Part shown: piece after piece, positions 1 through 17,933 of the stretch | How the letters are laid out: each line of letters opens with the position of its first letter | Numbering within the stretch: position 1 is the stretch's first letter | NCBI RefSeq assembly: GCF_001735745.1 | Contig: NZ_CP017260.1 | Location: 1,290,001 to 1,322,000, forward strand | Direction of reading: 5' to 3' | Source: Formosa sp. Hel1_33_131 | GTDB taxonomy: Bacteria; Bacteroidota; Bacteroidia; Flavobacteriales; Flavobacteriaceae | Length of the DNA: 32,000 nt | Translations under genes and position numbers: made by a program | Notes under the pieces: generated by a model | Told to the model about the DNA's origin: nothing | The model's input: the letters and a program-made list of their open reading frames with translations, nothing else | Database searches by the model: none

Positions 1-203
1 AACTTTTTCAAAGGAACTTCCAAAGCTTTAGCGATTTCCAAAAGTGAATAGATTGTTGGGTTGACTTTTCCATTCTCCAACTTTTCTAATGCCTGTCTAT
101 CTTTATTGCAAGCACGAGCCAAATCTGACTGACTCCAGCCCTTCTGACTTCTTAACTCAATAATACGCTGACCGACTTTCTTTTTAAGTTGTTCTTTATC
201 CAC
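1..203 (-). CDS. XRE/Cro-C1 family helix-turn-helix regulator (partial; C-terminus runs off the left edge)
   Basis: Not in the ORF track because it is truncated. Manual reverse translation from GTG (203-201) gives VDKEQLKKKVGQRIIELRSQKGWSQSDLARACNKDRQALEKLENGKVNPTIYSLLEIAKALEVPLKK..., a textbook HTH_3 pattern. The start codon is uncertain because there is no in-frame ATG. Confidence 0.7.
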   Translation of the reverse strand, partial: MDKEQLKKKVGQRIIELRSQKGWSQSDLARACNKDRQALEKLENGKVNPTIYSLLEIAKALEVPLKK

Positions 204-210
204 AAAACAA

Positions 211-298
211 ATGTCATCTAATAATATGACATTTTTGTCATACAAAAGTTTGACAACTCAATTTGAATTACTATGTTTGTCATATAAATAGTTGACAA
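211..298. promoter_or_regulatory. Array of three 22-bp palindromic operator-like sites with core TGTCA-N10-TGACA
   Basis: Read directly from the sequence. The sites are ATGTCA-tctaataata-TGACAT (211-232), TTGTCA-tacaaaagtt-TGACAA (235-256) and TTGTCA-tataaatagt-TGACAA (277-298). All arms are perfect inverted repeats with identical 10-nt spacers. Centre-to-centre distances are 24 and 42 bp. The array fills the spacer between the divergent HTH gene and the SymE-like gene. Confidence 0.6.
249..279 (+). promoter_or_regulatory. Bacteroidota-type promoter (-33 TTTG, -7 TAnnTTTG) for the SymE-like gene
   Basis: TTTG at 249-252 and TATGTTTG at 272-279, with 19 nt between them. The TTG start codon lies 20 nt downstream at 299. 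Operator site 3 (277-298) overlaps the -7 box and the expected transcription start. Confidence 0.45.
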
Positions 299-499
299 TT
301 GAGTAAATTCAGGATTTTAAAAATATACAGTAAGTTCCGTTATCGAACGTGGGACAATACAACTGTACCTGAAATAAGACTTGAAGGAAGATGGCTTGAG
401 AAACTCGGATTTGAGCAAGGAAATGAAGTGTTAATTGAACAGAAAAAGAATAAGTTGATAATAACTGTGAAGAAAGAAAAAGAGCATAACACTGTATAA
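299..499 (+). CDS. SymE-like / AbrB-SpoVT-fold small protein (SymE toxin family homolog)
   Basis: 66 aa. The core VPEIRLEGRWLEKLGFEQGNEVLIEQKKNKLIITV resembles the E. coli SymE core [34 protein letters not shown]. The only usable start is TTG at 299, with an in-frame stop at 293-295. Confidence 0.7.
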   Translation: MSKFRILKIYSKFRYRTWDNTTVPEIRLEGRWLEKLGFEQGNEVLIEQKKNKLIITVKKEKEHNTV

Positions 500-783
500 A
501 AAAACATAGGGCATTTCTGCAAACCCGAAAGGTCAGTGAATAATACTAAGTCCGCCAAATATAAAATTTGACGTTTAAGACAAAAAAGATAAAAGCAAAA
601 TATTATATTTGGCTAAGTACCAATTCGTAACGAAAGTGCTTTTAACCGCCCTACGTTTCTTATACGTAGACGTTGAAAAACAGCTAGTTTATAAATATAA
701 ATTCTGCTATTATTTTTATTTTTTAGTAAACGTTTTTGTTTACTAATTAAATATTTTATATGTTTACATGAAACAGCGGAATC

Positions 784-1293
784 ATGTTACCAAGATTAAA
801 TAAAATTAAAGGAATACACCCAGGCACACTGTTAAGGTGGGAATTAAATAACCGAAATCTAAAAGGCAGTGAATTAGCGGATGCGATTGGCGAGCATAAA
901 CAAACCATAAGTGCTATTCTTAATAAAAGGAGGGCCATAAACCCAAGTCTTTCTATTAAGTTATCAAAAGAGTTTAAAACAGACAACGATTACTTCATGT
1001 TATTACAAGCAAGTTATGACGTAAAATTAGTAGCGGAATCTGAAATAAAAAACACACCAAATCTCAATAATATAAGGAAAGTGCTTTTTTGGGATACTAA
1101 TTTTAATAACATTGATTGGAACAAAAATAAAAAAGCCGTCATACAGAGAATTTTAGAAAGAGGGAATAAAACTGAAATAAATGAACTCATTTTATTCTAT
1201 GGAAGAAAAACGATTTCCAAGGAAATTAAATCAATAAAGAAAAGCCACTTACCTTCTTTTGAGAAGAATATTATAGAGCATAATTTGAAATAA
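784..1293 (+). CDS. HigA-type HTH (antidote-like) protein fused to an extra C-terminal domain (probably the Bacteroidota DUF6922-type domain)
   Basis: 169 aa. The N-terminus GIHPGTLLRWELNNRNLKGSELADAIGEHKQTISAILNKRRAINPSLSIKLSKEFKTDNDYFMLLQASYDV matches the HigA/VapI pattern (HPGe.L.e.l...g.s...LA..lg.....is.il.GkR.it....l.L...f......w..lQ..YDl). Residues from about 75 to 169 are not HTH-like (VLFWDTNFNNIDWNKNKKAVIQRILERGN...). The gene ends 4 nt before the next gene. Confidence 0.8.
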   Translation: MLPRLNKIKGIHPGTLLRWELNNRNLKGSELADAIGEHKQTISAILNKRRAINPSLSIKLSKEFKTDNDYFMLLQASYDVKLVAESEIKNTPNLNNIRKVLFWDTNFNNIDWNKNKKAVIQRILERGNKTEINELILFYGRKTISKEIKSIKKSHLPSFEKNIIEHNLK

Positions 1294-1297
1294 CAAA

Positions 1298-1945
1298 ATG
1301 GAGTTATTCTTAAATACTGTTTCCGATTTGCTTTGGAATTCTCTAAAACAATTAATGTCAATGGAGGTCTTTAATAGTTTTAGAATTGTTGGAGGCACCT
1401 CATTAAGTCTTCAACTAGGTCATAGAGAGTCCGTTGACATCGATTTATTTACAGATGCTGATTATGATAGTATCGCGTTTTCTTTACTTGAAACTAAATT
1501 GACTAAAACCTTTCCTTATGTAGATATATCACCCGTTGATTTGGTAGGAATGGGCAAGTCGTATTTTATTGGCAACAATGAAAATGAATGTGTAAAATTA
1601 GATTTATTTTACACAGATCCTTTTGTTTTCCCTTGTATTCTGGAACAAGGAGTTAGGTTTGCAAGTATTGAAGAAGTTGCGGCAATGAAATTTGAAGTAA
1701 TTGCTAATGGTGGCAGGAAAAAAGATTTTTGGGATGTCCACGAACTATTAGAAACTTACACGTTAGATGAAATGATAGACTTTTATCTCAAAAGAAGTCC
1801 ATATGGTTATTCAAAAGATGAATTACTCCTGAAAGTCGTTGATTTTTCTGATGCAGAAGACGATTTTACACCAAACTGCCTTAGAGGAAAAGTCTGGGAA
1901 TTAATTAAGTTAGATTTTGAAGTTAAAACCGATAAAATTATATGA
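1298..1945 (+). CDS. AbiEii/AbiGii-family (DUF1814) nucleotidyltransferase toxin
   Basis: 215 aa. It carries the NTase signature IVGGTSLSLQLGHRESVDIDLF (GG at aa 32-33, DxD at aa 47-49). It also has the family-typical downstream KFEVIANGGRKKDFWDVHELL motif (K...R...D.-D). Confidence 0.85.
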   Translation: MELFLNTVSDLLWNSLKQLMSMEVFNSFRIVGGTSLSLQLGHRESVDIDLFTDADYDSIAFSLLETKLTKTFPYVDISPVDLVGMGKSYFIGNNENECVKLDLFYTDPFVFPCILEQGVRFASIEEVAAMKFEVIANGGRKKDFWDVHELLETYTLDEMIDFYLKRSPYGYSKDELLLKVVDFSDAEDDFTPNCLRGKVWELIKLDFEVKTDKII

Positions 1946-1988
1946 ATCAAAGTCAATAAATTAGAGATTTGGTGGAACCAAAACACTC

Positions 1989-3128
1989 CTAACTATACTT
2001 CGCCTTCCTCAAGATCCGCATACTTTCTTTATAAAGCGCATACACTTCGTCGCTGTGTTTATACAACAACGACTTTGCGGCTTGGAGTTGTGTCAGTGCT
2101 TCTTCAAAACCATTAAAATAACAGATTAAATAGGTCGCAGGAACATTTTTTAAATCTTTGAGCTGCGCCGCTGTTAGCTCAGTCCCTTGTTTAAGTCGGT
2201 CCATAAGTGCGTTGTTCGCATTAAAAATATGGTGTAGAATCTTTTTATCGTATTGAGGCGGCTTAAAAAGCAATTGAGAGTCAATGTTATAAATCGCATT
2301 GTTTCCAAAAGTAATCGTGGTTTCTTCTAATTCATAATACGTATTTTGACCGTTTAGACCAAGATTCACATACTCAATAATCTTAAAAGAATCATTGTCA
2401 TAGGAAATCTCAACGGCATCCAAAGTCGAATAAAACAAGCGCACCTGCTCGTTAATCAACTCAATATCCACTCGCGAATAAAAGGTTTGGGTTTTAAGTG
2501 TCTTTTTCTGTCCAGACCAACACATCACAAAATATTCTTTAAAAACCTTGTATTTTGGATCGTAATCGTTCCGTTTCGCCATAAAATCAAACACCCCGTC
2601 CAACGTATATTGAATGTTGTTTTGAGAATGTGCCTCAATAGACGACACAATTTCAGAATTAGAATCCGTCAATTCAATGTCAAACACTTTGGGCATACTC
2701 ATACTGCCTTCTCTAAAAAACACATTGCCGCCATAATACTTCCAAATATTTTTACGAAGCGAGGTAATCTCTTGGGGGTCTTTGGGGCGAATCGTTACCA
2801 ACCCCACCACCTTATCATCGTTCAAATGCGGAAACGGAATGTTTTCATACTGAATAATTGGTGGGTGACTTAGATAGGCATTAACCAAGTTTTGAATTTT
2901 ACTATCATCAAAAAAATCAACCCCAATAATGTGACTGTACTGATCGTCCACCCCAATCACGATGTATGAATTGTTATTCGGATTGCTATTGGATAGCGCA
3001 CAAATATGTTTCAAAAACTTCGCTTTACCCTCTTTACTGCTAATATTAATTTTTAACTTTTTATCATAAAAACTACTCTCGTCATTATGCGCAAGAAGGT
3101 TTTTGATAAGCAGTCGTTTATTAATCAT
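1989..3128 (-). CDS. AlbA_2 (Schlafen-type, 'divergent AAA') domain protein with an unassigned C-terminal half
   Basis: 379 aa. Residues from about 15 to 150 fit the AlbA_2 pattern: ESSFYDKK...KFLKHICALSNSNPNNNSYIVIGVDDQYSHIIGV...VVGLVTIRP...VFFREGSMSMP. The remaining roughly 230 aa carry no motif I recognise. The start lies only 11 nt downstream of the aldo/keto reductase stop on the same strand. Confidence 0.7.
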   Translation of the reverse strand: MINKRLLIKNLLAHNDESSFYDKKLKINISSKEGKAKFLKHICALSNSNPNNNSYIVIGVDDQYSHIIGVDFFDDSKIQNLVNAYLSHPPIIQYENIPFPHLNDDKVVGLVTIRPKDPQEITSLRKNIWKYYGGNVFFREGSMSMPKVFDIELTDSNSEIVSSIEAHSQNNIQYTLDGVFDFMAKRNDYDPKYKVFKEYFVMCWSGQKKTLKTQTFYSRVDIELINEQVRLFYSTLDAVEISYDNDSFKIIEYVNLGLNGQNTYYELEETTITFGNNAIYNIDSQLLFKPPQYDKKILHHIFNANNALMDRLKQGTELTAAQLKDLKNVPATYLICYFNGFEEALTQLQAAKSLLYKHSDEVYALYKESMRILRKAKYS

Positions 3129-3139
3129 TTTTCAGAGTT

Positions 3140-4015
3140 TTAGAGGACTTCGTAACCTTGGCTGGCCTCTAATATTTTAAACCAATCTTGGATTGTTAAA
3201 TGTATAGAAACAGCTTTCGAAGCTGCTTTGATGTGTTTTAAATTTGTACTCCCGATCACAGGGTGAATCCCCGAAGGATGTTTTAAAATCCAAGCCAATA
3301 ACAACTGACCTGGAGAGGCGTTGTATTTGGTTGTCAACTTTTGTGTTTGGTCTAAAATACGTTTTTTTTGAGATGTCGTTTTAGTACTAAAAACAGCTCC
3401 TAAAGGCGCCCAGGCCATCGGAGTAATTTTATGTGTTAGCATCTGCTCCAAACGTCCATCAAACAGTGCTTGATGTTGCACTGCCGAAAACTCAATTTGA
3501 TTCACATCAACCACCACTTCGCTTGACAAAAGATCAACCTGTGAAGGTGTAAAATTAGACACCCCAAAGCTAATGATTTTACCTTCTTTTTTTAATTGCT
3601 CAACAGCTTCCATAACCTCATAAGGATGCATCAACGGACTGGGGCGGTGAAGTAAAAGCAAATCTAAATACTCCGTGTTCAAATGCTTCAACGACGCCTC
3701 CGCAGAAAAAATGATATAGTCTTTTGAACAATCGTAATGTTTGAGTTCGTTTGGGCGGTTTGAACCCATCAATTGAATTCCGCATTTAGAAATAAATTGA
3801 ACTTTTGAGCGTTCAATCGCCGTTTTAGAAAACGCCGTTCCAAAAGCAGACTCCGTCGTATAGCCTCCATAAATATCTGCATGGTCAAAAGTGCTGATGC
3901 CTAAATCGACTATAGTTTCAATCATGCGTTGCATCTGATTTGGATTGAACTTTTTGCCCCAAGCACCCCAAGACATGGTGCCTGCAATAATTTTTGAAAA
4001 GTTACTTTTATTCAT
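3140..4015 (-). CDS. Aldo/keto reductase, YdhF-like oxidoreductase
   Basis: Alignable by eye with E. coli YdhF (DHADIYGGY..E..FG, LDLLLLHRP.PLM, FGVSNFTPSQ, MAW.PLG). I prefer the ATG at 4015 (MNKSNFSKIIAGTMSWG) over the track start at 4048. Confidence 0.9.
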   Translation of the reverse strand: MNKSNFSKIIAGTMSWGAWGKKFNPNQMQRMIETIVDLGISTFDHADIYGGYTTESAFGTAFSKTAIERSKVQFISKCGIQLMGSNRPNELKHYDCSKDYIIFSAEASLKHLNTEYLDLLLLHRPSPLMHPYEVMEAVEQLKKEGKIISFGVSNFTPSQVDLLSSEVVVDVNQIEFSAVQHQALFDGRLEQMLTHKITPMAWAPLGAVFSTKTTSQKKRILDQTQKLTTKYNASPGQLLLAWILKHPSGIHPVIGSTNLKHIKAASKAVSIHLTIQDWFKILEASQGYEVL

Positions 4016-4172
4016 TTTTATAGTTTGGGATCTAAAATTAACAAACAATCATTCAATATCCTATAAAATGAACTTAAGTTTTAACCAATTATTAACAAGG
4101 AGAACGAAAATATTTTAACAAATTGCGTAACATAATTTTTTGAACCCAAATACAATTTTTTAAATTATCACA

Positions 4173-5177
4173 ATGGAAGAAAATAATACCACTGTTGACA
4201 TTGCGTCAATAAATAAAAAAATTGAAAAAGAGAGTGCTTTTGTAGATTTACTTACACTAGAAATGGGCAAAGTAATCGTCGGGCAAAAACACATGGTTGA
4301 ACGTTTACTTATTGGGCTTTTAGGTCAAGGTCACATTCTTTTAGAAGGTGTTCCTGGGCTAGCCAAAACACTCGCCATCAACACCTTATCACAAGCGGTT
4401 GCGGGAAGTTTCAGTCGGATTCAATTCACACCCGACCTCCTACCTGCCGATGTGGTAGGAACCATGATTTACAACATCAAGGCCAATGATTTTACCATTA
4501 AAAAAGGACCAATTTTTGCCAACTTTGTACTGGCGGATGAAATCAACCGTGCGCCTGCTAAAGTGCAGTCTGCACTCCTAGAGGCCATGCAAGAAAAACA
4601 AGTCACCATTGGCGATGAAACCTTTATTTTGGACAAACCATTCCTTGTGATGGCAACCCAAAATCCTGTGGAACAAGAAGGAACCTATCCTCTTCCTGAA
4701 GCACAAGTAGATCGTTTCATGTTAAAAACAATCATTGATTATCCAAAAATTGAAGACGAACAGCAAATTGTGAGAGCAAATCTAAAAGGCGCGTTCGAAA
4801 AAATAAAACCCGTCGTCACTGTCGCTCAAATTTTGAGTGCACAGGCCGCCGTCAGAGAGGTTTATATGGATGAAAAAATTGAAAAATATATTTTAGACAT
4901 CGTATTTGCGACGCGTTATCCTGAAAAATACCGCTTGGCGGAACTCAAACCCTTAATTTCTTTTGGGGCTTCTCCAAGGGGAAGTATTAACTTGGCAACG
5001 GCAGCCAAATGCTATGCATTTATCAAACATCGTGGCTATGTCATCCCCGAAGATGTGCGTGCAATCGTCTATGATGTACTGCGTCATCGTATCGGAATCA
5101 CCTATGAAGCGGAAGCGGAAAATGTAACATCCGAAGACATTATTAGTAAAATTGTCAATGTCATTAAGGTGCCTTAA
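4173..5177 (+). CDS. MoxR-family AAA+ ATPase (first gene of the Bat-type operon)
   Basis: 334 aa. Walker A is GVPGLAKT and Walker B is FVLADEINRA. The C-terminal lid region GASPRGS is typical of MoxR. Confidence 0.95.
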   Translation: MEENNTTVDIASINKKIEKESAFVDLLTLEMGKVIVGQKHMVERLLIGLLGQGHILLEGVPGLAKTLAINTLSQAVAGSFSRIQFTPDLLPADVVGTMIYNIKANDFTIKKGPIFANFVLADEINRAPAKVQSALLEAMQEKQVTIGDETFILDKPFLVMATQNPVEQEGTYPLPEAQVDRFMLKTIIDYPKIEDEQQIVRANLKGAFEKIKPVVTVAQILSAQAAVREVYMDEKIEKYILDIVFATRYPEKYRLAELKPLISFGASPRGSINLATAAKCYAFIKHRGYVIPEDVRAIVYDVLRHRIGITYEAEAENVTSEDIISKIVNVIKVP

Positions 5178-5237
5178 TTCGTAGTGACTTTATTGTTTGA
5201 TTTACAAATCACACACAACTAACAGCACACTTATCAA

Positions 5238-6104
5238 ATGGATACCAAGGAATTACTTAAAAAAGTTCGGAAAATAGAGATCAAAACACGGCGGTTGTCC
5301 GACCATGTGTTTGGGGGTGAGTACCACTCGACTTTCAAAGGCCGTGGAATGACCTTTTCTGAAGTAAGGCCCTATCAATATGGTGATGATGTAAGAAATA
5401 TTGACTGGAATGTCACAGCCCGCTGCAACGAACCGCACATTAAGGTGTTTGAAGAAGAGCGTGAACTGACCATGATGTTAATGGTGGATGTGTCGGGATC
5501 CAAATTATTTGGAACTGAAGCGCAATTTAAAAATGAAATTGTAACTGAAATTGCTGCAACGCTGGCCTTTTCAGCCACACAAAATAATGATAAAATTGGA
5601 TTGATTTTATTCTCGGATGGAATTGAATTGTACATCCCTCCTAAAAAAGGACGTTCTCATGTATTGAGGATTATTAGAGAATTGATTGAGTTTGAACCTA
5701 AAAGTAAACTTACGAACATCGCGGAAGCTTTAAAGTTTTTGTCGAATGTGATGAAAAAGAAAGCCATTGTCTTTTTACTTTCTGATTTTATGACGGAAGA
5801 ATATCAACACAATTTAAAAATCGCTTCTGGAAAACACGACATCACCGGGATCCGCGTTTATGACAAATACGAAGCTGAAATTCCGAATTTAGGAATGGTA
5901 CAAATGGAAGATCAAGAAACGGGCGCCTCATTTTTAGTCAATACCGCCTCAAAAACGGTGCGTAAAAACTACCAAGCGAATTACCAAACCAAGCTTCATT
6001 ATTTCTCAGATAGCTTTAAAAAATCGGGCGCAGGCGCTCTCGACTGCAGAGTGGATGAAAGTTATGTGAAAAAATTATTAGGCTATTTTAAACAACGTGG
6101 ATAA
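5238..6104 (+). CDS. DUF58 family protein (VWA-like, MoxR partner)
   Basis: 288 aa. It has the signature YQYGDDVRNIDWNVTAR followed by MLMVDVSGS. This is the standard gene after moxR in these operons. Confidence 0.9.
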   Translation: MDTKELLKKVRKIEIKTRRLSDHVFGGEYHSTFKGRGMTFSEVRPYQYGDDVRNIDWNVTARCNEPHIKVFEEERELTMMLMVDVSGSKLFGTEAQFKNEIVTEIAATLAFSATQNNDKIGLILFSDGIELYIPPKKGRSHVLRIIRELIEFEPKSKLTNIAEALKFLSNVMKKKAIVFLLSDFMTEEYQHNLKIASGKHDITGIRVYDKYEAEIPNLGMVQMEDQETGASFLVNTASKTVRKNYQANYQTKLHYFSDSFKKSGAGALDCRVDESYVKKLLGYFKQRG

Positions 6105-6111
6105 GCAATAC

Positions 6112-7782
6112 ATGAAGATAGATATCACCATAAAACACCGCTCCATTCAAAATTTACTTTTGAGTGTTTGCTGTATGCTCTTTTCTCTTGTGGGCTATGG
6201 GCAAGTGTACTCTAGTATCGATTCGACTGCTATAAAAATTGGTGCTGAATTATTTTATAAAATACAAGTAAAAACAGACTCCACCACACTCGTGGTATTC
6301 TCAGAAGAACAAACGTTTCAGCCCCTTGAAATGATCAACAGTTACGCAATTGATACTACCAAAAAAGAGGGGTATTATCAACTGACAAAGACTTATGGTC
6401 TGACTCAATTTGATTCTGGAGTTTATACCATTCCAAAACAAAAAATCATTATTGGAGACAAGGTCTTTTTTACAGATTCTTTACAAGTACAAGTAAATAC
6501 GGTGATAGTCGATACGACTAAGCAAAAGCTTTTTGATATCAAACCACTTATCGCAGTTGAAAAACATCGCTCGGGTATATGGGGGACGCTTGCGCTTATT
6601 CTACTTATATTATCACTCGTCGGCGGTGTATTATACTGGTTTATTTGGCGCAAAAAACCATTGACCGAAGCCGAAAAAATTGCAGCGCTCCCACCTTATG
6701 AGCGTGCCAAACTAGCCCTTGAAAAATTAGATGAAGAGCGTTATTTTGAAAATGAAGAGGTTAAAACGTACTATTCCGATCTGACTTTAATTTTGAGACA
6801 GTACCTCGATGAAAAGGTGTACGAACAATCACTTGAAAGTACAACAGACGAATTGGTGACACGTTTAAAAACACTGGAGGCCGCCAATCAAATCACGCTA
6901 AGTAAAGATACCATTCGGAATATAGAAACCATTTTGAAACGTGCCGATTTGGTGAAATTCGCCAAATCCAAACCCGATTTTCAACTCGCAAAACTCGACA
7001 AAAGTACCATCGAACTAGAAATTGATCATGTAAAAGACGGGCTTCCGGAGCCTACCGAAGAAGAGTTACTGAAAGATTTGGAATACCGTGAGGCACTCGC
7101 GCGTCAACAAAAGCGCAAAAGAATCAAACAAATTGTAGCCATCGTTGTTGGAGTCCTTTTAATCACACTAACAGCACTTGTGATCCGCTCTGGTTTTACA
7201 AAAGTCAAAGACACGGTCTTGAGAAATCCTAGTAAACTATTGTTAGAAAAAACTCCTTGGGTAACCAGTGAATATGGCGCGCCAGGTATTACCCTTTCAA
7301 CACCCGAAGTTTTAGAACGTCAGACTGTTGAACTGCCTGAAGAAATGAAAGGTAAAGTTCAAATGATCGCCTTTGCATACGCTGGAATCGACAAACCGAT
7401 AGATGTGGTTGTAAACAGTTCTAAGTTTGCTGCAAAACCAGATGAAAACGGCGAAGAAAAAGAAGTTCCCATTGATGTCCTAAAAGTGGCAGAAGGGGTC
7501 TTGGATACCTTTGAAGAAAAGGGCACGAAAAACATAACCACACGCAACGAACAGTTTATAACACCCAACGGGCAGGAGGGAGTTAAAACCTTTGGAACCG
7601 CAGAGTTTCTTATAGAGGACAAACTGATAAAAGGGGAATACATCATTTTAGGATTTTCGACACCCAATTTATTACAACAAGTGATATTGACTTGGAAAGA
7701 GGAGGATGTATATGCTGATCAAATGATAGAGCGTATTCTAAATTCTATCGAACTAATTAAACTAACAGAAGACGAAAAGTAA
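6112..7782 (+). CDS. Bat-operon membrane protein (BatD-like N-domain, two TM helices, DUF4381-like helical module, unknown C-domain)
   Basis: The ORF opens at GTG 6097, overlapping the DUF58 stop. ATG 6112 gives a signal-like N-terminus (MKIDITIKHRSIQNLLLSVCCMLFSLVGYGQ). TM helices lie at about aa 160-184 and 345-366 in track numbering. The stop overlaps the batA start (TAATG at 7780-7784). Confidence 0.7.
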   Translation: MKIDITIKHRSIQNLLLSVCCMLFSLVGYGQVYSSIDSTAIKIGAELFYKIQVKTDSTTLVVFSEEQTFQPLEMINSYAIDTTKKEGYYQLTKTYGLTQFDSGVYTIPKQKIIIGDKVFFTDSLQVQVNTVIVDTTKQKLFDIKPLIAVEKHRSGIWGTLALILLILSLVGGVLYWFIWRKKPLTEAEKIAALPPYERAKLALEKLDEERYFENEEVKTYYSDLTLILRQYLDEKVYEQSLESTTDELVTRLKTLEAANQITLSKDTIRNIETILKRADLVKFAKSKPDFQLAKLDKSTIELEIDHVKDGLPEPTEEELLKDLEYREALARQQKRKRIKQIVAIVVGVLLITLTALVIRSGFTKVKDTVLRNPSKLLLEKTPWVTSEYGAPGITLSTPEVLERQTVELPEEMKGKVQMIAFAYAGIDKPIDVVVNSSKFAAKPDENGEEKEVPIDVLKVAEGVLDTFEEKGTKNITTRNEQFITPNGQEGVKTFGTAEFLIEDKLIKGEYIILGFSTPNLLQQVILTWKEEDVYADQMIERILNSIELIKLTEDEK

Positions 7783-10696: not shown

Positions 10697-12451
10697 ATGA
10701 AACTGAAACTATTTTTACTTACATTTTTCGTGTCCGGAATACTTTCGGCACAGGTATCCTTTGATGCAAAAGTGAGTAAAAAACAACTCGGGATCAATGA
10801 GCGTCTTCGAGTCGATTTTACTATGAACACAGACGGGGATGATTTTGAACCGCCCAGTTTTCAAAACTTTACAGTGGTTGGTGGGCCCAGTCAATCCATC
10901 AATAATTCTTGGATAAATGGAACGCGGTCGTTTTCAAAAAGTTATAGTTATTTTTTAGCACCCAAAAAACGAGGAGATTTTACTATTGGTCAGGCCACCA
11001 TTGAAATTGATGGAAAAATCTATAAAACCCTTCCAATAAAAATTACGGTCACCGCCGCAATTGACAAGCCTAAGGATCCCAACGACCCTGACTATATTGC
11101 TTCAGAAAAAATTCACTTGGTCGCTGAGGTTTCAAACACAAATCCGTATTTAAACGAAGCAATAACGGTGGTTTACAAACTTTATGTCGCTCAGAACACT
11201 GGTGTAAGAAACTGGCGAGAAATAGACAATCCGAGGTACGGTGATTTTTGGAGTCAAAACATTGATGTGAAGAGCGTGAACATTCAGAACGGCACTTATA
11301 AAGGGGAGGAGTACCGCTATGTGATCCTTAGAAAAACCGTTTTGTACCCTCAAAAAACAGGAAAATTAACTATTGAGCCGTTACCTCTTGATGTAACTGT
11401 TGAAGTTCCATCACAAAGGCGTGATGTTTTTGGAAGAAGTTTTATGAGCACGGTGAATAGAACCGTCGCAAGTGGGAATCGAACGATTAATGTAAAACCC
11501 CTCCCTGAAAATGGAAAACCAGAAGATTTTTCTGGAGCCGTTGGAAGTTTTAATTTTAAACTAACAACCAATAAACAAACACTAAAGGCTACCGAAGCGC
11601 TTGAATTAAAAGTTAGTGTCTCAGGAAAAGGCAATTTAAAACTCTTCAGACTTCCAAAATTGGTACTTCCTAGCGCACTAGAAGTCTATGAGCCTGAGCA
11701 TTCCGAAAACGTAAAAACGAGAACCTCGGGCATGCAAGGAAGCATTAGCGACACCTATACGGTCGTACCCAACTATCAAGGAAGTTATCCGATTCCTAAC
11801 GTCTCTTTTTCTTATTTTGATTTAAAAACAAAACGCTATAAAACATTAACTTCAGAACGGCTCATTATAGAGGTCAATGAAGGCCCAGTGAGCGCAAATA
11901 ATAATACTTCAGGAGTCGTCACAGAAAATGTCATTACTCAAAATTTGAATCAATTTAGTTCCTTCAAAACAACGACCACTTTGCTGCCGATTCAGTCCAA
12001 GCCTTTTTTTAACTCCAACTTGTTTTGGCTCTTATTGTTAGCCCCTTTCTTATTAATTCCACTTATTATGTTATTGGTTAGAAACCGAATGACACGCGCC
12101 TTGGATGTGAGTGGAAATAAAATTCGGAAAACAAATCGATTGGCACGAAAATATTTAAGTGCCGCAAAAAAATCCTTAGGTAAAAAAGAACAGTTTTATA
12201 ACGCACTTGAACGGGCGCTTCACAATTATTTGAAATCAAAATTACGCTTAGAAACCAGTGAGTTTAATAAAGAAAAGATCGAAGAATTGCTGGGAGATAA
12301 AAGTGTAAACAGTGACACCTTAGAGGGGTTTATGTCTCTTTTAACTTCTTGCGAGCTGGCAAGATACACCCCGCTTTCTACGGTTGACATGCAAAATGAT
12401 TATGGAAAAGCCGCCAGTGTAATTAATGCTTTAGACAAACAATTAAATTAA
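10697..12451 (+). CDS. batD: BatD (oxygen-tolerance family) protein
   Basis: 584 aa. It has a signal peptide (MKLKLFLLTFFVSGILSAQ), repeated beta-rich modules, and a single TM near aa 445-470. A cytoplasmic helical tail ends ...CELARYTP. It starts 3 nt after the batC stop. Confidence 0.85.
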   Translation: MKLKLFLLTFFVSGILSAQVSFDAKVSKKQLGINERLRVDFTMNTDGDDFEPPSFQNFTVVGGPSQSINNSWINGTRSFSKSYSYFLAPKKRGDFTIGQATIEIDGKIYKTLPIKITVTAAIDKPKDPNDPDYIASEKIHLVAEVSNTNPYLNEAITVVYKLYVAQNTGVRNWREIDNPRYGDFWSQNIDVKSVNIQNGTYKGEEYRYVILRKTVLYPQKTGKLTIEPLPLDVTVEVPSQRRDVFGRSFMSTVNRTVASGNRTINVKPLPENGKPEDFSGAVGSFNFKLTTNKQTLKATEALELKVSVSGKGNLKLFRLPKLVLPSALEVYEPEHSENVKTRTSGMQGSISDTYTVVPNYQGSYPIPNVSFSYFDLKTKRYKTLTSERLIIEVNEGPVSANNNTSGVVTENVITQNLNQFSSFKTTTTLLPIQSKPFFNSNLFWLLLLAPFLLIPLIMLLVRNRMTRALDVSGNKIRKTNRLARKYLSAAKKSLGKKEQFYNALERALHNYLKSKLRLETSEFNKEKIEELLGDKSVNSDTLEGFMSLLTSCELARYTPLSTVDMQNDYGKAASVINALDKQLN

Positions 12452-12455
12452 ACAG

Positions 12456-13202
12456 ATGAAGAAATTTCTTATTTTTTGGTTGATGTGTTTCGTTGGTTTT
12501 TCACAAACTACAGAGTCGTTTAAGCAAGCCAATGACCTTTACAATTCTGGCTACTATAAAGAAGCCATCGATCGGTATGACTCTATATTAGAATCGAATC
12601 AGCATTCTGCGGAGCTCTATTTTAATCTTGCCAACTGTTATTATAAATTAAATGAAATTGGCCCGAGTATCTTTTATTATGAAAAAGCGCTACAGCTGTC
12701 TCCAGACGATACGGACATTATAAACAACTTGGGCTATGCGCAAAAAATGTCCATTGACGCCATTCAAGAAGTTCCTGAAAGTGGGGTTTCAAAATTTTTA
12801 AATAAAACCCTCAACAGCTTAAGTGTGGACGGTTGGGCTACCCGAAGCGTAGGCTTGGTCTTTCTTTTTGTGTTTTTATTTTTAGGGTACTACCTTTCTC
12901 ACTCAGAGGCTAAAAAACGTGTATTTTTTATTTCAAGCAGTCTGGTTTTAATCTTACTATTTATATCTCTAAGTTTATTATTTAAAAAAGACAGCTTTGA
13001 CAACAGCACCCATCCAGCGATTGTTTTTGCCAAGGAGACAGAAGTGAGAGCGGAGCCAAACCTTAGAGCAGAAACGTCCTTTACTCTCCATGAAGGCACC
13101 AAGGTTTTGGTGATTGAGGATTATAATGAAGACTGGTCAAAAATAAAATTACTCAATGGCGAAACGGGTTGGATGGCGAGTTCGGAGTTAAAAGCGCTCT
13201 AA
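12456..13202 (+). CDS. batE: BatE-like TPR + SH3b protein
   Basis: 248 aa. TPR repeats are present (YNSGYYKEAIDRYDSIL, FNLANCYYKLNEIGPSIFYYEKALQLSP) along with TM segments. The C-terminus is SH3b-like (VRAEPNLRAETSFTLHEGTKVLVIEDYNEDWSKIKLLNGETGWMASSEL). Confidence 0.8.
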   Translation: MKKFLIFWLMCFVGFSQTTESFKQANDLYNSGYYKEAIDRYDSILESNQHSAELYFNLANCYYKLNEIGPSIFYYEKALQLSPDDTDIINNLGYAQKMSIDAIQEVPESGVSKFLNKTLNSLSVDGWATRSVGLVFLFVFLFLGYYLSHSEAKKRVFFISSSLVLILLFISLSLLFKKDSFDNSTHPAIVFAKETEVRAEPNLRAETSFTLHEGTKVLVIEDYNEDWSKIKLLNGETGWMASSELKAL

Positions 13203-13252
13203 TAAAAATATAAAATTTCATTTCATTTTTTATTCTATCTTTACAATTATCT

Positions 13253-13567
13253 ATGAAATTAATGAATATCACAAAATATTTTTCTTTTTTCTGTTCTCTG
13301 TTTTTTCTACTTAATATCATAGGTCCAACACTTGTACTTCTGAATTCAAATGATGAGGTGTCAACGGTTGTCATTTCACTAGAACAAGAAACTGAAACAA
13401 AAGACATCGAAGATGTTAAGGAGTTTACGGAGCTTGATTTTAATAAAACGCACTCTCAAGATGCGCATTCATTTATAACACAGCAATCGTTATCCTTTGT
13501 ATTTTATAATAAGGCTCTAAGAGAAACTCATTTAGAAAACACATCACCCCCTCCAAAATTTATATAG
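13253..13567 (+). CDS. Hypothetical small membrane-anchored or secreted protein
   Basis: 104 aa. It has an N-terminal hydrophobic segment (YFSFFCSLFFLLNIIGPTLVLL) and an acidic middle, with no recognised family. It lies 50 nt after batE and is followed by an 8-bp hairpin at 13588-13606. Confidence 0.4.
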   Translation: MKLMNITKYFSFFCSLFFLLNIIGPTLVLLNSNDEVSTVVISLEQETETKDIEDVKEFTELDFNKTHSQDAHSFITQQSLSFVFYNKALRETHLENTSPPPKFI

Positions 13568-13630
13568 ATTACATTCTGTATCTACAAACAAAGAGCTTCT
13601 CTTTGTGAATTTCAATCTAATATTATTACA

Positions 13631-15472
13631 ATGAAACAATTTTTTTCAAACATAAAAGGCGATGCTTTTGGTGGCATCACCGCAGGAGTCGTCGCATTAC
13701 CATTAGCATTAGCTTTTGGAGTCTCTTCTGGATTAGGTCCTAGCGCAGGTCTTTACGGCGCAATTTTTATTAGCTTTTTTGCAGCCCTTTTTGGCGGTAC
13801 CAACACTCAAATATCAGGCCCTACGGCACCAATGACCGCCGTGAGTATGGTCGTCATTTCTGGAATTATCGCCGCGAATGATGGCGATTTATCAATTGCT
13901 CTCCCTGCCATATTAACTGTGTTTTTAATCGCGGGACTTTCTCAAATTGGCCTAGGAGTTTTGGGATTAGGGAAGTACATTAAATACATTCCTTACCCCG
14001 TAGTTTCTGGCTTCATGACGGCCATTGGGGTTATTATTTTACTAACTCAAATTTTACCCTCGCTTGGTTACAACCCAAAAGAAGACTTGCAATATGTGAA
14101 TCAATTTAAGGCACAAGCCGAAGAAGTGATTCTTGAAAATATTTTAAAAGATGAAGCTGGAGACGGCATCTTAGTGTTAGAAGATTTCACAGAAACCATC
14201 GATCGTGCTTCTTTAATATCGCAAGACGATATCCAAAAAGAATCTGAAATATTAGCTGCTAAGAGTGCCTCGGGAACAATCGGTGCGCTAAAATTAATGC
14301 CAAGAGCACTTCAGGATATCAATTGGTTGGAGCTGTTGCTGGCTTTGGGTACGATTCTTATTATTTATGGCTTTAAACGCATTACAACCGTAGTCCCTAG
14401 TACGCTGGTCGCTTTGGTGGTCATGTCTGGAATCGCCATCGTCTTTGGATTGAATTATAAACCCATCGAAGAAATTCCTAGCGGATTGCCCATTCTTCAA
14501 TATGAAATTTTTACTAAATTTAAATTAGCGACCATTACGCCTTATATTTTCACAGGGTTTACGCTCGCGCTGTTAGGTGCTATTGACTCCTTACTTACTA
14601 GTATCGTAGCGGATAATATGACCAAAACAAAGCACAACCCAAACAAGGAGCTTATTGGGCAGGGAATTGGAAACAGTATTGCGTCTATGTTTGGAGGGAT
14701 TCCAGGCGCAGGAGCCACCATCAGAACGGTTGTAAACATAAACTCTGGGGGGAAAACAAAACTCTCTGGTATGATCGCCGGCGTAATGTTGTTATTTGTT
14801 TTATTGGCCTTAGGTCCTATCGCTTCCAAAATTCCTACCGCAGTACTCTCTGGGATTTTAATAACCGTAGGGATTGGTGTGATGGACTATAAAGGTCTGA
14901 AAGCAATTCCTTCCTTACCAAGAGACCTGTCGTTTGGGCCGTTCAAATTAAGTTCTGAGGTATTAATCATGCTCGTAGTATTGTTACTCTCTACGTTTTG
15001 GGATTTGATTTTCGCTGTGGGAATTGGCTTGATTATCGCTTGTTTAATGTTTATGAAAAAAATTGGCGATTTGACTTCGGAGTATTCCGATGTGAAGGTC
15101 TTAAAAGAAAAATCGTGGCCAGATGAGAAAAACTTTCCAGAGCACTTAAAAGAGTCTGTGTTTATCAAACACATCAAAGGACCTTTGTTTTTTGGATCGA
15201 CCTCTGATTTTCAGCAATTGTACAAACAGATTCCAGACTCTGCAAGGACTGTAATTTTGCGTTTGGAACGTATGCAGTATATGGATCAATCTGGGCTTTA
15301 TGCCATGGAGGACATGATTCAGGAGCTGCAAACAAAGAAGGTAGAAGTACTGTTTGTAAACCTATTAAAACAACCTCGCTATATGATGGAACGGATTGAC
15401 ATCATCCCAGATTTTATTCCGGAAGCACATATTTATGATAGTTTTGAAGCCTGTATTAACGAGTTGTCTTAG
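13631..15472 (+). CDS. SulP-family anion transporter with C-terminal STAS domain
   Basis: 613 aa. The N-terminus is typical SulP (GDAFGGITAGVVALPLALAFGVSSGLGP..GLY). It has a multi-TM core and a STAS-like tail (FIKHIKGPLFFGSTSDF...VILRLERMQYMDQSGL). Confidence 0.93.
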   Translation: MKQFFSNIKGDAFGGITAGVVALPLALAFGVSSGLGPSAGLYGAIFISFFAALFGGTNTQISGPTAPMTAVSMVVISGIIAANDGDLSIALPAILTVFLIAGLSQIGLGVLGLGKYIKYIPYPVVSGFMTAIGVIILLTQILPSLGYNPKEDLQYVNQFKAQAEEVILENILKDEAGDGILVLEDFTETIDRASLISQDDIQKESEILAAKSASGTIGALKLMPRALQDINWLELLLALGTILIIYGFKRITTVVPSTLVALVVMSGIAIVFGLNYKPIEEIPSGLPILQYEIFTKFKLATITPYIFTGFTLALLGAIDSLLTSIVADNMTKTKHNPNKELIGQGIGNSIASMFGGIPGAGATIRTVVNINSGGKTKLSGMIAGVMLLFVLLALGPIASKIPTAVLSGILITVGIGVMDYKGLKAIPSLPRDLSFGPFKLSSEVLIMLVVLLLSTFWDLIFAVGIGLIIACLMFMKKIGDLTSEYSDVKVLKEKSWPDEKNFPEHLKESVFIKHIKGPLFFGSTSDFQQLYKQIPDSARTVILRLERMQYMDQSGLYAMEDMIQELQTKKVEVLFVNLLKQPRYMMERIDIIPDFIPEAHIYDSFEACINELS

Positions 15473-15480
15473 GCTTAAAA

Positions 15481-16014
15481 TCACTTCGCCTCTTCAGGAG
15501 AATTAAGAATATTCGGGAGCTCTAGTGGTATTTCTTCATTTATAAAATTTGGAAAAATCATGGGAGCTAACGACTTTACTGGGTTGTAAAGTATGGACGT
15601 TTCGATCTCTTCATCGGAGACAAAAGGTATGGTTTTATTTAAAGTGTTAAAAATCAACAAAAGGATGCTGAGGATTAAAGCAATTTTTAAACCTCCAAAA
15701 AGGCCTCCTAGTAATTTGTTTAGAATTCCTAAGGATGCAAAATCGGCAAGCTTGGTCAGTGCTTTACCTGCAAGTGAGATCACCAATACAATCACCACAA
15801 ATGTAATCGCGAAAGCTGTGATGTTTATTGTTTTTTCGCCCCATTCAAAACGGTCAGATAAAAATTCCGCTGCATAATTACTAAAATGTACGGCACCATA
15901 CACCCCCACTAATAATGCGAGTAAAGAAGTGACCTCCACAAAAAAACCTTTAGAGAGCCCTTTGATTAATCCGTAAAGAATAAATGCGCCTAAAATAATA
16001 TCAATGATCGCCAT
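15481..16014 (-). CDS. cvpA: CvpA-family membrane protein
   Basis: 177 aa with four hydrophobic helices. The N-terminus IDIILGAFILYGLIKGLSKGFFVEV is typical of CvpA. Confidence 0.8.
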   Translation of the reverse strand: MAIIDIILGAFILYGLIKGLSKGFFVEVTSLLALLVGVYGAVHFSNYAAEFLSDRFEWGEKTINITAFAITFVVIVLVISLAGKALTKLADFASLGILNKLLGGLFGGLKIALILSILLLIFNTLNKTIPFVSDEEIETSILYNPVKSLAPMIFPNFINEEIPLELPNILNSPEEAK

Positions 16015-16037
16015 GGTGTTTAATTTAATTGATTTTT

Positions 16038-16045
16038 CAAAATTA
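16038..16045 (-). promoter_or_regulatory. -7 box TAATTTTG (TAnnTTTG) for cvpA
   Basis: The plus strand reads CAAAATTA at 16038-16045, which is TAATTTTG on the minus strand. It lies 23 nt upstream of the cvpA ATG. Confidence 0.4.
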
Positions 16046-16117
16046 ACAATGATTCCTAACTTAACAACTCAAATGTTTCGTTTCTATTTTAATACACCCT
16101 AAATTTACGAAATAATT

Positions 16118-16474
16118 ATGGCTCGAGACGAAGAACTTAAAAAACGATGGGAAGAGGTGGTTGAAAAACTGTCCTCTCAATTTGCGGATGGCGATCCTTT
16201 AGACCTAGATGGGATTATCTATCTCATTGGTGTACAGGAACTTGGGCAGCTACACCGAACCTTTAAAAAAGATGAAAAACTCAACCTGATGCACATTGCA
16301 ATCTGTCGACTTTTAGAGCCCTACGGCTACTATGTGTTTGACTATTTCGATGAACAAGGTTGGCCACATTATACCATAAAAGAAGCCTTGCCAAATCTAA
16401 AGGCTGGCGAACAAAGTATTCTGATGAAGGATGCGATTGTAAACTATTTTATTGAGGCGGAGTTTATTAGTTAA
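16118..16474 (+). CDS. Hypothetical protein (soluble, no family recognised)
   Basis: 118-aa ORF with an ATG start and compositionally normal coding sequence. I recognise no motif. Confidence 0.55.
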   Translation: MARDEELKKRWEEVVEKLSSQFADGDPLDLDGIIYLIGVQELGQLHRTFKKDEKLNLMHIAICRLLEPYGYYVFDYFDEQGWPHYTIKEALPNLKAGEQSILMKDAIVNYFIEAEFIS

Positions 16475-16481
16475 GTTTTCT

Positions 16482-16489
16482 TAAATTTG
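16482..16489 (+). promoter_or_regulatory. -7 box TAAATTTG (TAnnTTTG) for pheS
   Basis: Exact TAnnTTTG match 20 nt upstream of the pheS ATG (16509). Confidence 0.4.
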
Positions 16490-16508
16490 GCCATTATTTA
16501 ATTTTATC

Positions 16509-17528
16509 ATGATAGAAAAGATCCATAAACTTATAGAAGAGGCTGAAGCGTTTTCGACACAATCTTTAGAAGAACTAGAAGTATTTCGTATTAAGTTTCT
16601 TGGGAAAAAAGGACTTTTGAATGATTTGTTTGCAAGCTTTAAAGAGGTTCCAAATGAACAAAAAAAGGACTTTGGACAGGCCATCAATAAATTAAAGAGT
16701 GCTGCACAAGAAAAGGTAAATTCCTTAAAGGCGTCCTTAGAAAACACCACAAGTGATGCATCTCTTTTTGGCGATTTGTCACGTCCCGGCGAGCCTTTTA
16801 ATATTGGTGCTAGACATCCAATTTCATTGGTAAAAAATCAAATTATTGATATTTTCTCGAGAGTTGGATTTAATGTAAGTGAGGGACCAGAAGTTGAAGA
16901 TGATTGGCATAATTTTACAGCACTAAACTTACCGGAGCATCATCCCGCAAGAGATATGCAGGACACGTTTTTTATACAAACAGATCCAGATGTATTATTA
17001 CGAACGCATACCAGTTCGGTACAAGTGCGTTATATGGAAAATAACCAACCGCCCATTCGTACCATTTCTCCGGGAAGGGTCTATAGAAATGAAGCTATTT
17101 CGGGGCGTTCACACTGTTTTTTCCACCAAGTAGAGGGCTTGTATATTGACAAAAATGTCAGCTTTGCAGACCTGAAGCAAACACTCCAATATTTTACAAC
17201 GGAGCTTTTTGGGAAATCAAAAATCAGACTACGACCTTCTTATTTTCCGTTTACAGAACCGAGTGCAGAGGTGGATGTGTACTGGGGGTTAGAAACCGAA
17301 ACAGACTACAAAATGACCAAAGGAACTGGCTGGTTAGAAATTATGGGCTGTGGAATGGTAGATCCGAATGTGCTTGAAAATTGTGGCATTGACTCCAAAG
17401 AATATTCTGGTTTTGCCTTTGGTATGGGAATCGATAGAATCGCATTGCTCTTACACCAAATTAGCGATATCCGATTGTTAAGTGAAAATAATATGCGCTT
17501 TTTAGAGCAATTTAAAAGTGCTTTGTAA
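16509..17528 (+). CDS. pheS: Phenylalanine--tRNA ligase alpha subunit
   Basis: 339 aa with class II aaRS motifs ([53 protein letters not shown]). Confidence 0.97.
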
Positions 17529-17537
17529 ACTTTTATT

Positions 17538-17933
17538 TTGAAAAAAGATATCCTGATTCCAGAAGTAAAAGACGTATATATCGCCGTTGTGCATGAGTAT
17601 AATGACACCTACAAGGTCTATGATTGGAATGCGTACATCATCAACGATAAATCCGTAGATTTAGAAATGGTGATTATTGTAACCAAAGGTTATTCTGAAG
17701 ACAAAAAAACGGCCACTTTTAGAAAAAAAATTGAGGCACTTCCCGCTAAAAGTTACACAAAAATTGAGATGCTTCTAGAAGATGTTTTGTCAATAAACAA
17801 CCTTTTTAATGTCTCATTTTTTGAAGATAATAAACTGTTTGAAAAAGCATTTGAATTCAGAAAAAACACGATTAACGAAAACGCACTTCAACAAATTCCA
17901 CTCATGAAGCTAAAAGGGGTTTTAAAATCTTAA
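17538..17933 (+). CDS. Hypothetical protein
   Basis: 131-aa ORF starting at TTG, 10 nt after the pheS stop. There is no early in-frame ATG and I recognise no family. Confidence 0.5.
   Translation: MKKDILIPEVKDVYIAVVHEYNDTYKVYDWNAYIINDKSVDLEMVIIVTKGYSEDKKTATFRKKIEALPAKSYTKIEMLLEDVLSINNLFNVSFFEDNKLFEKAFEFRKNTINENALQQIPLMKLKGVLKS

Follow-up and report, generated by a model that had tools for sequence, protein, structure and literature searches.

The left end of a 32,000-nt stretch of the genome of Formosa sp. Hel1_33_131 (contig NZ_CP017260.1, positions 1,290,001 to 1,322,000; "the window" hereafter) raises the question of whether its first 3.1 kb form one defence island or a place where unrelated units meet. 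Specifically, positions 1-3128 hold five open reading frames (ORFs): a divergent XRE-family/SymE-like pair, a HigA-type/AbiEii pair, and a gene for an AlbA_2 (Schlafen-type) protein. A reading made from the sequence alone had taken these for three modules of a single island, possibly acting together through domains that it could not assign. Its ORF positions and all of its domain calls were borne out by translation and Pfam searches, yet the arrangement now looks different: the 3.1 kb are likely the junction of three independent units, namely the last cassette of an integron-like array, a fixed toxin-antitoxin (TA)-like pair and a core gene. The most interesting features of the locus are two that the sequence-only reading overlooked, a non-coding site of ~190 nt at 482-674 and the cassette architecture. 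The features, in window coordinates, are these:

1-245, minus strand: XRE-family helix-turn-helix (HTH) repressor gene (translation; Pfam HTH_3), its 3′ end ~13 nt past the left edge of the window
209-298, no strand: divergent promoter and presumed operator region, three palindromes with TGTCA half-sites (repeat search)
299-499, plus strand: SymE-like protein of 66 aa, AbrB/MazE-type fold family (Pfam SymE_toxin), last gene of its cassette
482-674, plus strand: attC-like, putative recombination site of the XRE/SymE cassette (sister-strain copies, covariation, folding)
675-783, plus strand: constant leader and promoter of the TA-like operon, ~97-100% identical under different upstream cassettes and beginning right after the crossover point
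784-1293, plus strand: putative antitoxin, HigA-type HTH (residues ~10-85) and DUF6922 (residues ~95-169, five helices) (Pfam, NCBIfam, structure model)
1298-1945, plus strand: putative toxin, AbiEii/DUF1814-family nucleotidyltransferase of 215 aa, starting 4 nt past the antitoxin stop (Pfam)
1911-1921, no strand: secondary insertion point in L003-type strains (blastn breakpoints and sequences)
1989-3128, minus strand: Schlafen-type (AlbA_2) nuclease domain fused to DUF5929, core flank (Pfam, synteny)

Pfam finds HTH_3 in the XRE ORF (E 9e-14), SymE_toxin (41.6 bits; cut-off 29) and MazE_antitoxin (E 8e-5) in the SymE-like ORF, HTH_3 and DUF6922 (E 2e-23) in the ORF at 784, AbiEii (PF08843) in the ORF at 1298-1945 (62.3 bits against a cut-off of 22.5), and SLFN_AlbA_2 (E 3e-12) with DUF5929 (E 2e-103) in the ORF at 1989. 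The parts previously called unassigned, the C-domain of the 784 ORF and the C-half of the 1989 ORF, therefore belong to catalogued Pfam families, DUF6922 and DUF5929, both of them functionally uncharacterised. When the proteins of the window were run through PADLOC, the AbiEii matches were weak (E about 3e-4) and the AlbA_2 N-terminus matched the candidate system PDC-S50 (E 2e-9).

Variable and conserved sides of the locus

The HigA-DUF6922 protein matches FORMB_12150 of Formosa sp. Hel1_33_131 residue for residue, and ten marine-metagenome contigs that encode exactly this protein served as a sample of sister strains (contigs and loci carry L numbers below). Rightward the ten contigs agree: AbiEii is followed by AlbA_2-DUF5929, an aldo/keto reductase and the Bat operon, except that L003 has a 6.5-kb insertion between the first two. 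On the left the flank is a core aldehyde dehydrogenase (Aldedh) gene, with content in between that is specific to the contig. One type of cargo consists of an integrase with TonB receptor, Fur and DUF1295 genes, a second of an integrase with methyltransferases and a helicase-nuclease, and a third of an integrase with HTH, Dcm and NgoPII genes; other contigs hold Dcm and HNH genes or hypothetical genes, and L008, which matches the window, has an insertion sequence (IS), two small genes, XRE and the SymE-like gene. By blastn, the left breakpoints all fall between window positions 472 and 706, with 98.6-100% identity rightward. In L003/L010-type strains the similarity to the window begins only at 706; the other breakpoints are at or before 672.

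These breakpoints, together with the differing upstream cargo, indicate that a variable island is real and that its left end lies outside the window, as had been proposed; contig L008 indeed continues leftward. The segment is also rich in defence genes, in that sister strains hold Mrr, type II/III-like restriction-modification (RM) systems and a cyclic-oligonucleotide-based antiphage signalling system (CBASS) at the same place. Likewise, G+C content is 31-32% over positions 1-2000 and ~38% beyond, and this step at ~2000 fits a foreign segment that ends near 1989. A tRNA search of eight loci found none, and a tRNA-targeting island was rejected on that basis.

The AlbA_2-DUF5929 gene has a different distribution. 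An orthologue scan with one genome per species returned more than 579 relatives, and the best 80 were inspected. These are full length, 70-92% identical and spread over many Flavobacteriaceae genera (including Winogradskyella, Psychroserpens, Algibacter, Gaetbulibacter, Mariniflexile and Polaribacter), and in every locus among them that is long enough to show it the gene lies between MoxR/Bat and Aldedh. Between Aldedh and AlbA_2, none of the 80 loci holds homologues of HigA-DUF6922, AbiEii, SymE, XRE or the integrase. The gap of the closest species (92% identity) is 657 bp long and contains a DUF2200 gene; over 64 genomes its length is 56-6239 bp. The idea of a "family-wide defence hot spot" between the two genes was toned down, as the gap mostly holds recurrent DUF1800/DUF1501, OmpA-type, helicase and DUF2200 genes. 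AlbA_2-DUF5929 is a vertically inherited core gene rather than island cargo, its role need not be defence, and its distribution is not that of an accessory defence-island gene. Its status as a syntenic core gene puts the right-hand limit of the island at the convergent junction 1945/1989, the first of two options that the earlier reading had offered.

With this, a single defence island of three modules, AlbA_2 included, whose unassigned domains would supply new and possibly joint defence functions, becomes very unlikely, and synteny already largely refutes it. It is true that defence genes co-localise here in sister strains, that the Schlafen catalytic motif is kept and the AlbA_2 N-terminus resembles PDC-S50, and that DUF6922 and DUF5929 are without assigned function. 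However, AlbA_2-DUF5929 is syntenic in the best 80 loci without the other modules, the HigA-DUF6922/AbiEii pair occurs alone in unrelated contexts, the XRE/SymE pair occurs with other neighbours, and the G+C content shifts at ~2000. The three distributions are independent and give no hint of joint action. What survives of the earlier proposal is the variable defence island, confined to positions 1-1945; the three-module system does not.

The attC-like site and the cassette ends

The ~190-nt site opens with an R''-like box, GAGCATAAC, at 482-490, which overlaps the last SymE-like codons (482-499). Within an outer stem, in which ~495-512 pairs with ~648-665, is an inner hairpin that is conserved; the G|TT of the crossover point lies at 672|673. 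Copies of the site at 78-84% identity terminate different cassettes in sister strains. A profile search found three of them in L097 alone, after the integrase and Mrr genes, after a group encoding a 108-aa protein, a 78-aa protein, XRE and the SymE-like protein, and after a group of HTH, Dcm, Dcm and HNH genes. Across the contigs the element follows cargo as unrelated as Mrr, HNH, DUF1295 and RM helicase genes, and the CBASS unit closes with a shorter, 135-nt relative of it. Of the GTTRRRY consensus of the core box, GTTR alone is kept.

The fold of the site is conserved beyond its sequence. An alignment of ten variants shows a long hairpin with 37 conserved pairs, 96.7% of cells paired, and 10 pairs with compensatory double changes; none of 500 shuffles equalled it, and slid controls reached at most 4 such pairs. 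Folded as single-stranded DNA, the window copy has z = -3.0 for the bottom strand and -2.6 for the top strand. The bottom strand is the more stable by 0.7-4.3 kcal/mol in 18 of 18 sites, which are homologous and so are not 18 independent observations.

A strongly covarying hairpin that overlaps the end of the SymE-like gene might also be primarily a structured RNA: a 3′ untranslated region or terminator, a small RNA, or a SymR-like antisense regulator of the SymE-like gene, given that SymE of E. coli is controlled by an antisense RNA. We regard this as highly improbable. The same element follows unrelated cargo, no Rfam match was found over window positions 1-4200 at E <= 1, and no T-tract terminator was found at the element. 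Furthermore, A/C mismatches sit on the coding-strand side, so that RNA of the sense strand would form a less stable fold than the antisense strand of the DNA, and the G|TT junctions would be left unexplained. The element may nonetheless have a secondary role as RNA.

A property that suggests a recombination site concerns the two ends of each cassette. A cassette opens with bases (G + TTxxxxxx; its first 6-9 nt) that read as the reverse complement of a box just left of its own terminal hairpin. This holds in 14 of ~20 cassettes, thirteen of them perfectly and one at 6/7, with matches ranging from 6/7 to 10/10:

TonB cassette: start GTTGTGCATA, box TATGCACAAC, 10/10
RM cassette (L004): start GTTACCTGC, box GCAGGTAAC, 9/9
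Mrr cassette: start GTTGCCAGTA, box TACTGGCAAC, 10/10
XRE/SymE cassette: start GTTATGCTC (first bases G|TTATGCTC), box GAGCATAAC, 9/9
CBASS cassette: start GTTGGCGTT, box AACGCCAAC, 9/9
L006, first cassette: start GTTACAAAT, box ATTTGTAAC, 9/9
L104, L105 and L108 cassettes: 9/9 each
L102, three cassettes: 9/9, 10/10 and 7/7
L008 mini-cassette (~75 nt): GTTGTGC and GCACAAC, 7/7
L005 cassette: GTTGTAT and ACACAAC, 6/7

Such complementarity has the character of a signature of circularising cassettes that would recombine at G|TT, in the manner of integron R'' and R'. As far as sequence can tell, these elements resemble attC in being imperfect palindromes whose R'' is complementary to G plus the first bases of their own cassette.

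Two other identities for the site were considered and dropped. A dispersed miniature inverted-repeat transposable element (MITE) was rejected on finding one copy in the 32-kb window and one match in 80 other genome loci. A dif/Xer site, as in integrative mobile elements exploiting Xer (IMEX) or pdif modules, was suggested by a TGTATA motif that resembles E. coli dif; the arms on either side of it do not form dif-like palindromes, and each locus has the motif once. One copy of the 190-nt type lies at 7727-7914 of L023, another uncultured Flavobacteriaceae genome, outside the Aldedh-AlbA_2 gap, which shows that this family of sites extends beyond Formosa.

The recombinase and the array

In sister strains a 387-aa recombinase gene directly follows the core Aldedh gene and is co-oriented with the cassettes. 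The protein scores 221 bits against the NCBIfam model NF040815, "site-specific tyrosine recombinase/integron integrase" (cut-off 220), and its catalytic HxLRH...GH...Y region aligns to XerA and IntI4; among solved structures it is nearest to archaeal XerA (E 8e-46). It also carries an N-terminal extension of ~95 aa that has no family match. After the integrase stop comes an attI-like stretch ending ...ATATAACTAG|TT, and the strains part right there. A second integrase variant has the junction ...ATATAACGAG|TT, and in a second species, whose integrase is 83% identical, eight contigs are the same up to ...ATATAACCAG|TT and then all different. In all, 11 contigs with three integrase variants are common to ...ATATAAC(T/C/G)AG and diverge after G|TT, a pattern that points to an attI-type insertion site followed by a G|TT cassette junction.

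A long array occurs in one 1.37-Mb contig, which has at least 9 co-oriented sites, ~1 kb apart, in the 10 kb after the integrase. Cassettes of the second species are 0.3-1.2 kb long. In at least three species the platform comes after the orthologous Aldedh gene (92% identity between species), and it looks sedentary because this neighbour is orthologous across them. PADLOC assigned the defence cargo to mREase_IV (E 2e-80) and to a CBASS with its cyclase (E 8e-65), E2 and 2TM effector. The unit that comes after the XRE/SymE cassette is HigA in the window, Dcm/HNH in L097 and CBASS in L098 and L120.

These observations suggest a mechanism, all parts of which are comparative and in which the recombination chemistry is something we infer. 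The attI-like sequence is followed by one to three co-oriented cassettes, each closed by an imperfect hairpin of 65-190 nt ending ...ACG|TT. Cassettes would leave as circles and re-enter at G|TT, with the effect of swapping and reordering cargo between strains; the cargo seen so far comprises Mrr, RM systems, CBASS, the TonB/Fur module and the XRE/SymE-like module.

It is worth considering that the same strain differences could arise from ordinary integrative islands in tandem at one att site, from homologous recombination between intergenic repeats (repetitive extragenic palindromic (REP), MITE or terminator-like), or from both, rather than from cassette exchange. The recombinase is Xer-like and without the additional domain of IntI, the cassettes are large and self-regulated, and CCAACGC motifs near cassette ends resemble, in our own reading, arm-type sites; in addition, site identity of 78-84% could support homologous exchange, and some junctions show no complementarity. 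We nonetheless consider this explanation unlikely. It leaves unexplained the cassette-specific end complementarity of 9-10 nt in 14 cassettes, the breakpoints exactly at G|TT in 11 attI-like junctions, the compensatory evolution of the hairpin, the cassettes that carry no integrase and the run of at least 9 co-oriented sites. Also, the element is not dispersed, with one copy in 32 kb and one match in 80 loci.

Several points weigh against an integron-type array. Against the integron-integrase model TIGR02249 the recombinase scores 209.5 (E 7e-62), below the cut-off of 265. Its alignment to VchIntIA (2a3v) falls into two pieces, with 23 residues where IntI4 has 66 (~43 fewer), the stretch that houses the additional domain of IntI4; a recombinase that does without this IntI-specific domain may use a different, double-stranded mechanism. 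Formosa cassettes of 1-6 kb, with several genes and their own HTH regulators, are unlike classical promoterless cassettes. End complementarity is absent from the Dcm/HNH cassette and from 4-5 junctions in L102, the kinship of the 18 sites reduces the weight of their shared strand bias, and L003-type strains vary at the same locus without attC-like sites. The window itself has one site and no integrase; in its own strain type the array is broken by an IS, and the metagenome contigs stop there, leaving the integrase out of view. With these points in mind, we file the array as integron-like rather than as a member of the integron family.

The likeness to sedentary chromosomal integrons, such as the Vibrio cholerae superintegron, is nonetheless extensive. 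Both have a tyrosine recombinase at a fixed place with an insertion site next to it, co-oriented cassettes that end in imperfect palindromes with complementary outer boxes (..AAC / GTT..) and a G|TT crossover, sites that are similar within a host, and cassette content that is strain-specific. Integron cargo is rich in defence and toxin-antitoxin genes (bioRxiv 10.1101/2024.07.02.601686), as is the cargo here. The differences lie in the recombinase, which is nearest to XerA, lacks the additional domain, has the ~95-aa N-terminal extension and is co-oriented with the cassettes, in sites that reach 190 nt with a conserved inner hairpin, and in the multi-gene, self-regulated cassettes of Formosa. 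For Bacteroidetes, the IntegronFinder 2.0 report lists nothing but In0 elements and a complete integron in Salinibacter (PMC9024848), and Bacteroidota are named among the clades earlier found without integrons (bioRxiv 10.1101/2024.07.02.601686). In the literature on flavobacterial integrons or arrays and on the Hel1_33_131 integrase we found no description of this system.

The wider proposal, which we hold with evenly divided confidence, is that marine Flavobacteriaceae possess an unrecognised class of sedentary chromosomal integron. It would be defined by a XerA/IntI-like recombinase with a new N-terminal extension and without the additional domain, a place downstream of the core Aldedh gene, and attC-like hairpins of 65-190 nt, and its arrays would serve as population-level banks of anti-phage genes that include candidate new systems such as the cassette encoding the 108-aa, zinc-ribbon, XRE and SymE-like proteins. 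If this is correct, integron-type gene capture extends to an abundant marine phylum deemed almost free of integrons, and the system is run by a recombinase without a domain thought essential for attC recombination. It would also offer a concrete mechanism for the strain-level turnover of phage defence in bloom-associated Flavobacteriaceae, and the attC-like sites would be a handle for collecting uncharacterised cassettes from metagenomes.

A few further observations concern the array and its surroundings. At 72-1646 of L008 an IS with a DDE_Tnp_1 transposase abuts the "empty" mini-cassette of ~75 nt (1700-1768; G|TTGTGC...GCACAAC...ACCG|TT). Short motifs, GCCAACGC and CCCAACGC, recur near cassette starts and also just ahead of R'' boxes (L002 5740-5850; L004 2990-3080; L005 7270-7340), where they may serve as accessory sites for binding. 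Integrase and Dcm genes are broken into several ORFs in L001, L005, L006, L110 and L118 (some ERZ106466xx assemblies) and intact in identical regions elsewhere, so that the splits are probably assembly frameshifts rather than pseudogenes. Integrase-less strains carry a different repeat of ~115-160 nt ahead of every group of genes, to the left as well as to the right of the HigA/AbiEii pair (L003 6397, 7999, 12094, 13519, 15087 and 16457; also L010, L117 and L119); it holds a 9-bp inverted repeat, GTTAAAATC...GATTTTAAC, and the set may represent a second cassette-type array.

The two gene pairs and their core neighbour

The cassette that ends at the attC-like site consists, in the order seen in L097, L095 and L100, of genes for a 108-aa protein, a 78-aa double zinc-ribbon protein, XRE and the SymE-like protein. 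The first two have no PADLOC match, and their Pfam matches are limited to the zinc ribbons of the 78-aa protein. The XRE gene, which is complete in L008, L095 and L097, probably starts at the GTG at 203, giving the 71-aa form of its homologues; gene callers take the TTG at 245. Between it and the SymE-like gene lie palindromes at 209-234 (AAATGTCAT-N8-ATGACATTT), 235-256 (TTGTCATAC-N4-GTTTGACAA) and 277-298 (TTGTCA-N10-TGACAA). These TGTCA palindromes would be operators through which the XRE protein represses both its own promoter and that of the SymE-like gene. The association is a recurrent one: among 26 metagenome loci with SymE-like relatives at 61-98% identity, a divergent XRE ORF stands directly upstream in 20, and most of the other six are too short upstream to judge.

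Like SymE of the E. coli SymE/SymR system, the SymE-like protein has the SymE_toxin Pfam domain and belongs to the AbrB-type fold family. It differs in length (66 aa against 113 aa), in lying far under the NCBIfam SymE equivalog cut-off (27.8 against 132) and in its partner, a divergent XRE repressor and no known antisense RNA. We describe it as no more than a possible toxin, and refrain from assigning it to type I SymE/SymR systems. In L130, L131, L132 and L144, SymE-like/XRE pairs adjoin homologues or fragments of recombinases of the same family (35-70% identity), and the module may travel with such recombinase platforms generally.

The start of the HigA-DUF6922/AbiEii operon coincides with the G|TT that ends the last site, and the operon has no site of its own, and on this ground we take it for a fixed flank or a decayed terminal cassette. 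A search for cassette structure failed: its start, GTTGAAAAAC, has no downstream complement, and just 43 nt separate AbiEii from the next gene. Ten places of this species were retrieved through the adjacent AlbA_2 gene, and all ten have the pair. Homologues with the 169-aa architecture number 746 (identity <=88%) and reach Crocinitomicaceae and Salinivirga, and in three unrelated contexts (Crocinitomicaceae, Tamlana and Salinivirga) the next gene is AbiEii. DUF6922 occurs in 388 representative clusters, both as a stand-alone protein (60-140 aa) and fused to an HTH (160-195 aa).

The N-terminus of the upstream protein matches the NCBIfam HigA model TIGR02607 (50.7 bits against 47.7), and its AlphaFold2 model is all-helical, with a predicted local distance difference test (pLDDT) score of 89. 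Foldseek matched this model to HigA antitoxins only, over the first ~80 residues at a TM-score of 0.8, and PDB sequence searches of DUF6922 and AbiEii gave nothing significant. In the translation of AbiEii the GG...DxD motif (GGTSLSLQLGHRESVDID) is present. By analogy with AbiE and MenAT, the nucleotidyltransferase would be a growth-arresting toxin, and the upstream protein would regulate its own expression by way of the HigA-type HTH and use DUF6922 to neutralise the toxin.

As in AbiE/MenAT, an AbiEii (DUF1814) nucleotidyltransferase comes right after a DNA-binding partner with an extra C-terminal domain, and the two are probably translationally coupled. Here, however, the partner is HigA-type HTH_3 plus DUF6922 and not AbiEi (COG5340), which was matched in the upstream protein by none of Pfam, NCBIfam and PADLOC. 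Likewise, the N-terminal 80 residues of the antitoxin are HigA in sequence and fold, as in HigBA, but the downstream gene encodes a nucleotidyltransferase, the antitoxin bears DUF6922, and the window ORFs and Pfam calls include no HigB-like (RelE-fold) ORF adjacent to the HigA part. We propose that the pair is a putative TA system with a new type of antitoxin, a proposal tempered by the weak PADLOC scores for AbiEii and by a toxicity argued from relatives; it would represent a distinct and widespread antitoxin variant for nucleotidyltransferase toxins. Our literature search on DUF6922 returned nothing relevant.

Two side observations involve this operon. In L092 (Tamlana agarivorans, 1-7148) another HigA-DUF6922/AbiEii pair lies downstream of an Aldedh gene, this time behind two genes for error-prone polymerases, one for a DnaE-type Pol III alpha-subunit and one for a Y-family (IMS-domain) polymerase. 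In L003 the 6.5-kb insertion (11138-17662), with AhpC, lipocalin, two DUF7151, Fic and other genes, falls within the 3′ end of AbiEii; it is bordered by a 10-nt direct repeat, AGATTTTGAA, and alters the AbiEii C-terminus (216 aa against 215 aa).

The AlbA_2-DUF5929 protein is strongly conserved, with a mean column identity of 85% over 38 orthologues. Residues 1-24 are almost invariant, and the motif E17-SSFY-D22-K-K24 (E17-x4-D22-x-K24) is intact and invariant in all 38. A structure model built from close homologues was poor (pLDDT 51). The sections of a report on prokaryotic Schlafens (pSlfn) on which we draw give Ex4(E/D)xK as the Schlafen nuclease motif, put DUF5929 fusions at 5.1% of 5,930 prokaryotic Schlafens, and name tested pSlfn proteins that came from enterobacteria (PMC13056530, Nat Microbiol 2026). 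The protein here resembles the pSlfn defence nucleases in its AlbA_2/Slfn domain and motif, and its DUF5929 fusion is already catalogued in those sections; unlike them, it behaves as the product of a syntenic core gene, present in one copy and held under strong purifying selection from genus to genus. Given this core-like pSlfn-DUF5929, one may ask if certain bacterial Schlafens serve in housekeeping. Beyond it, the aldo/keto reductase ORF at window positions 3140-4048 (302 aa, TTG start) exceeds the 279-291-aa calls in most sister contigs, and its true start is probably an internal ATG (MNKSNF...).

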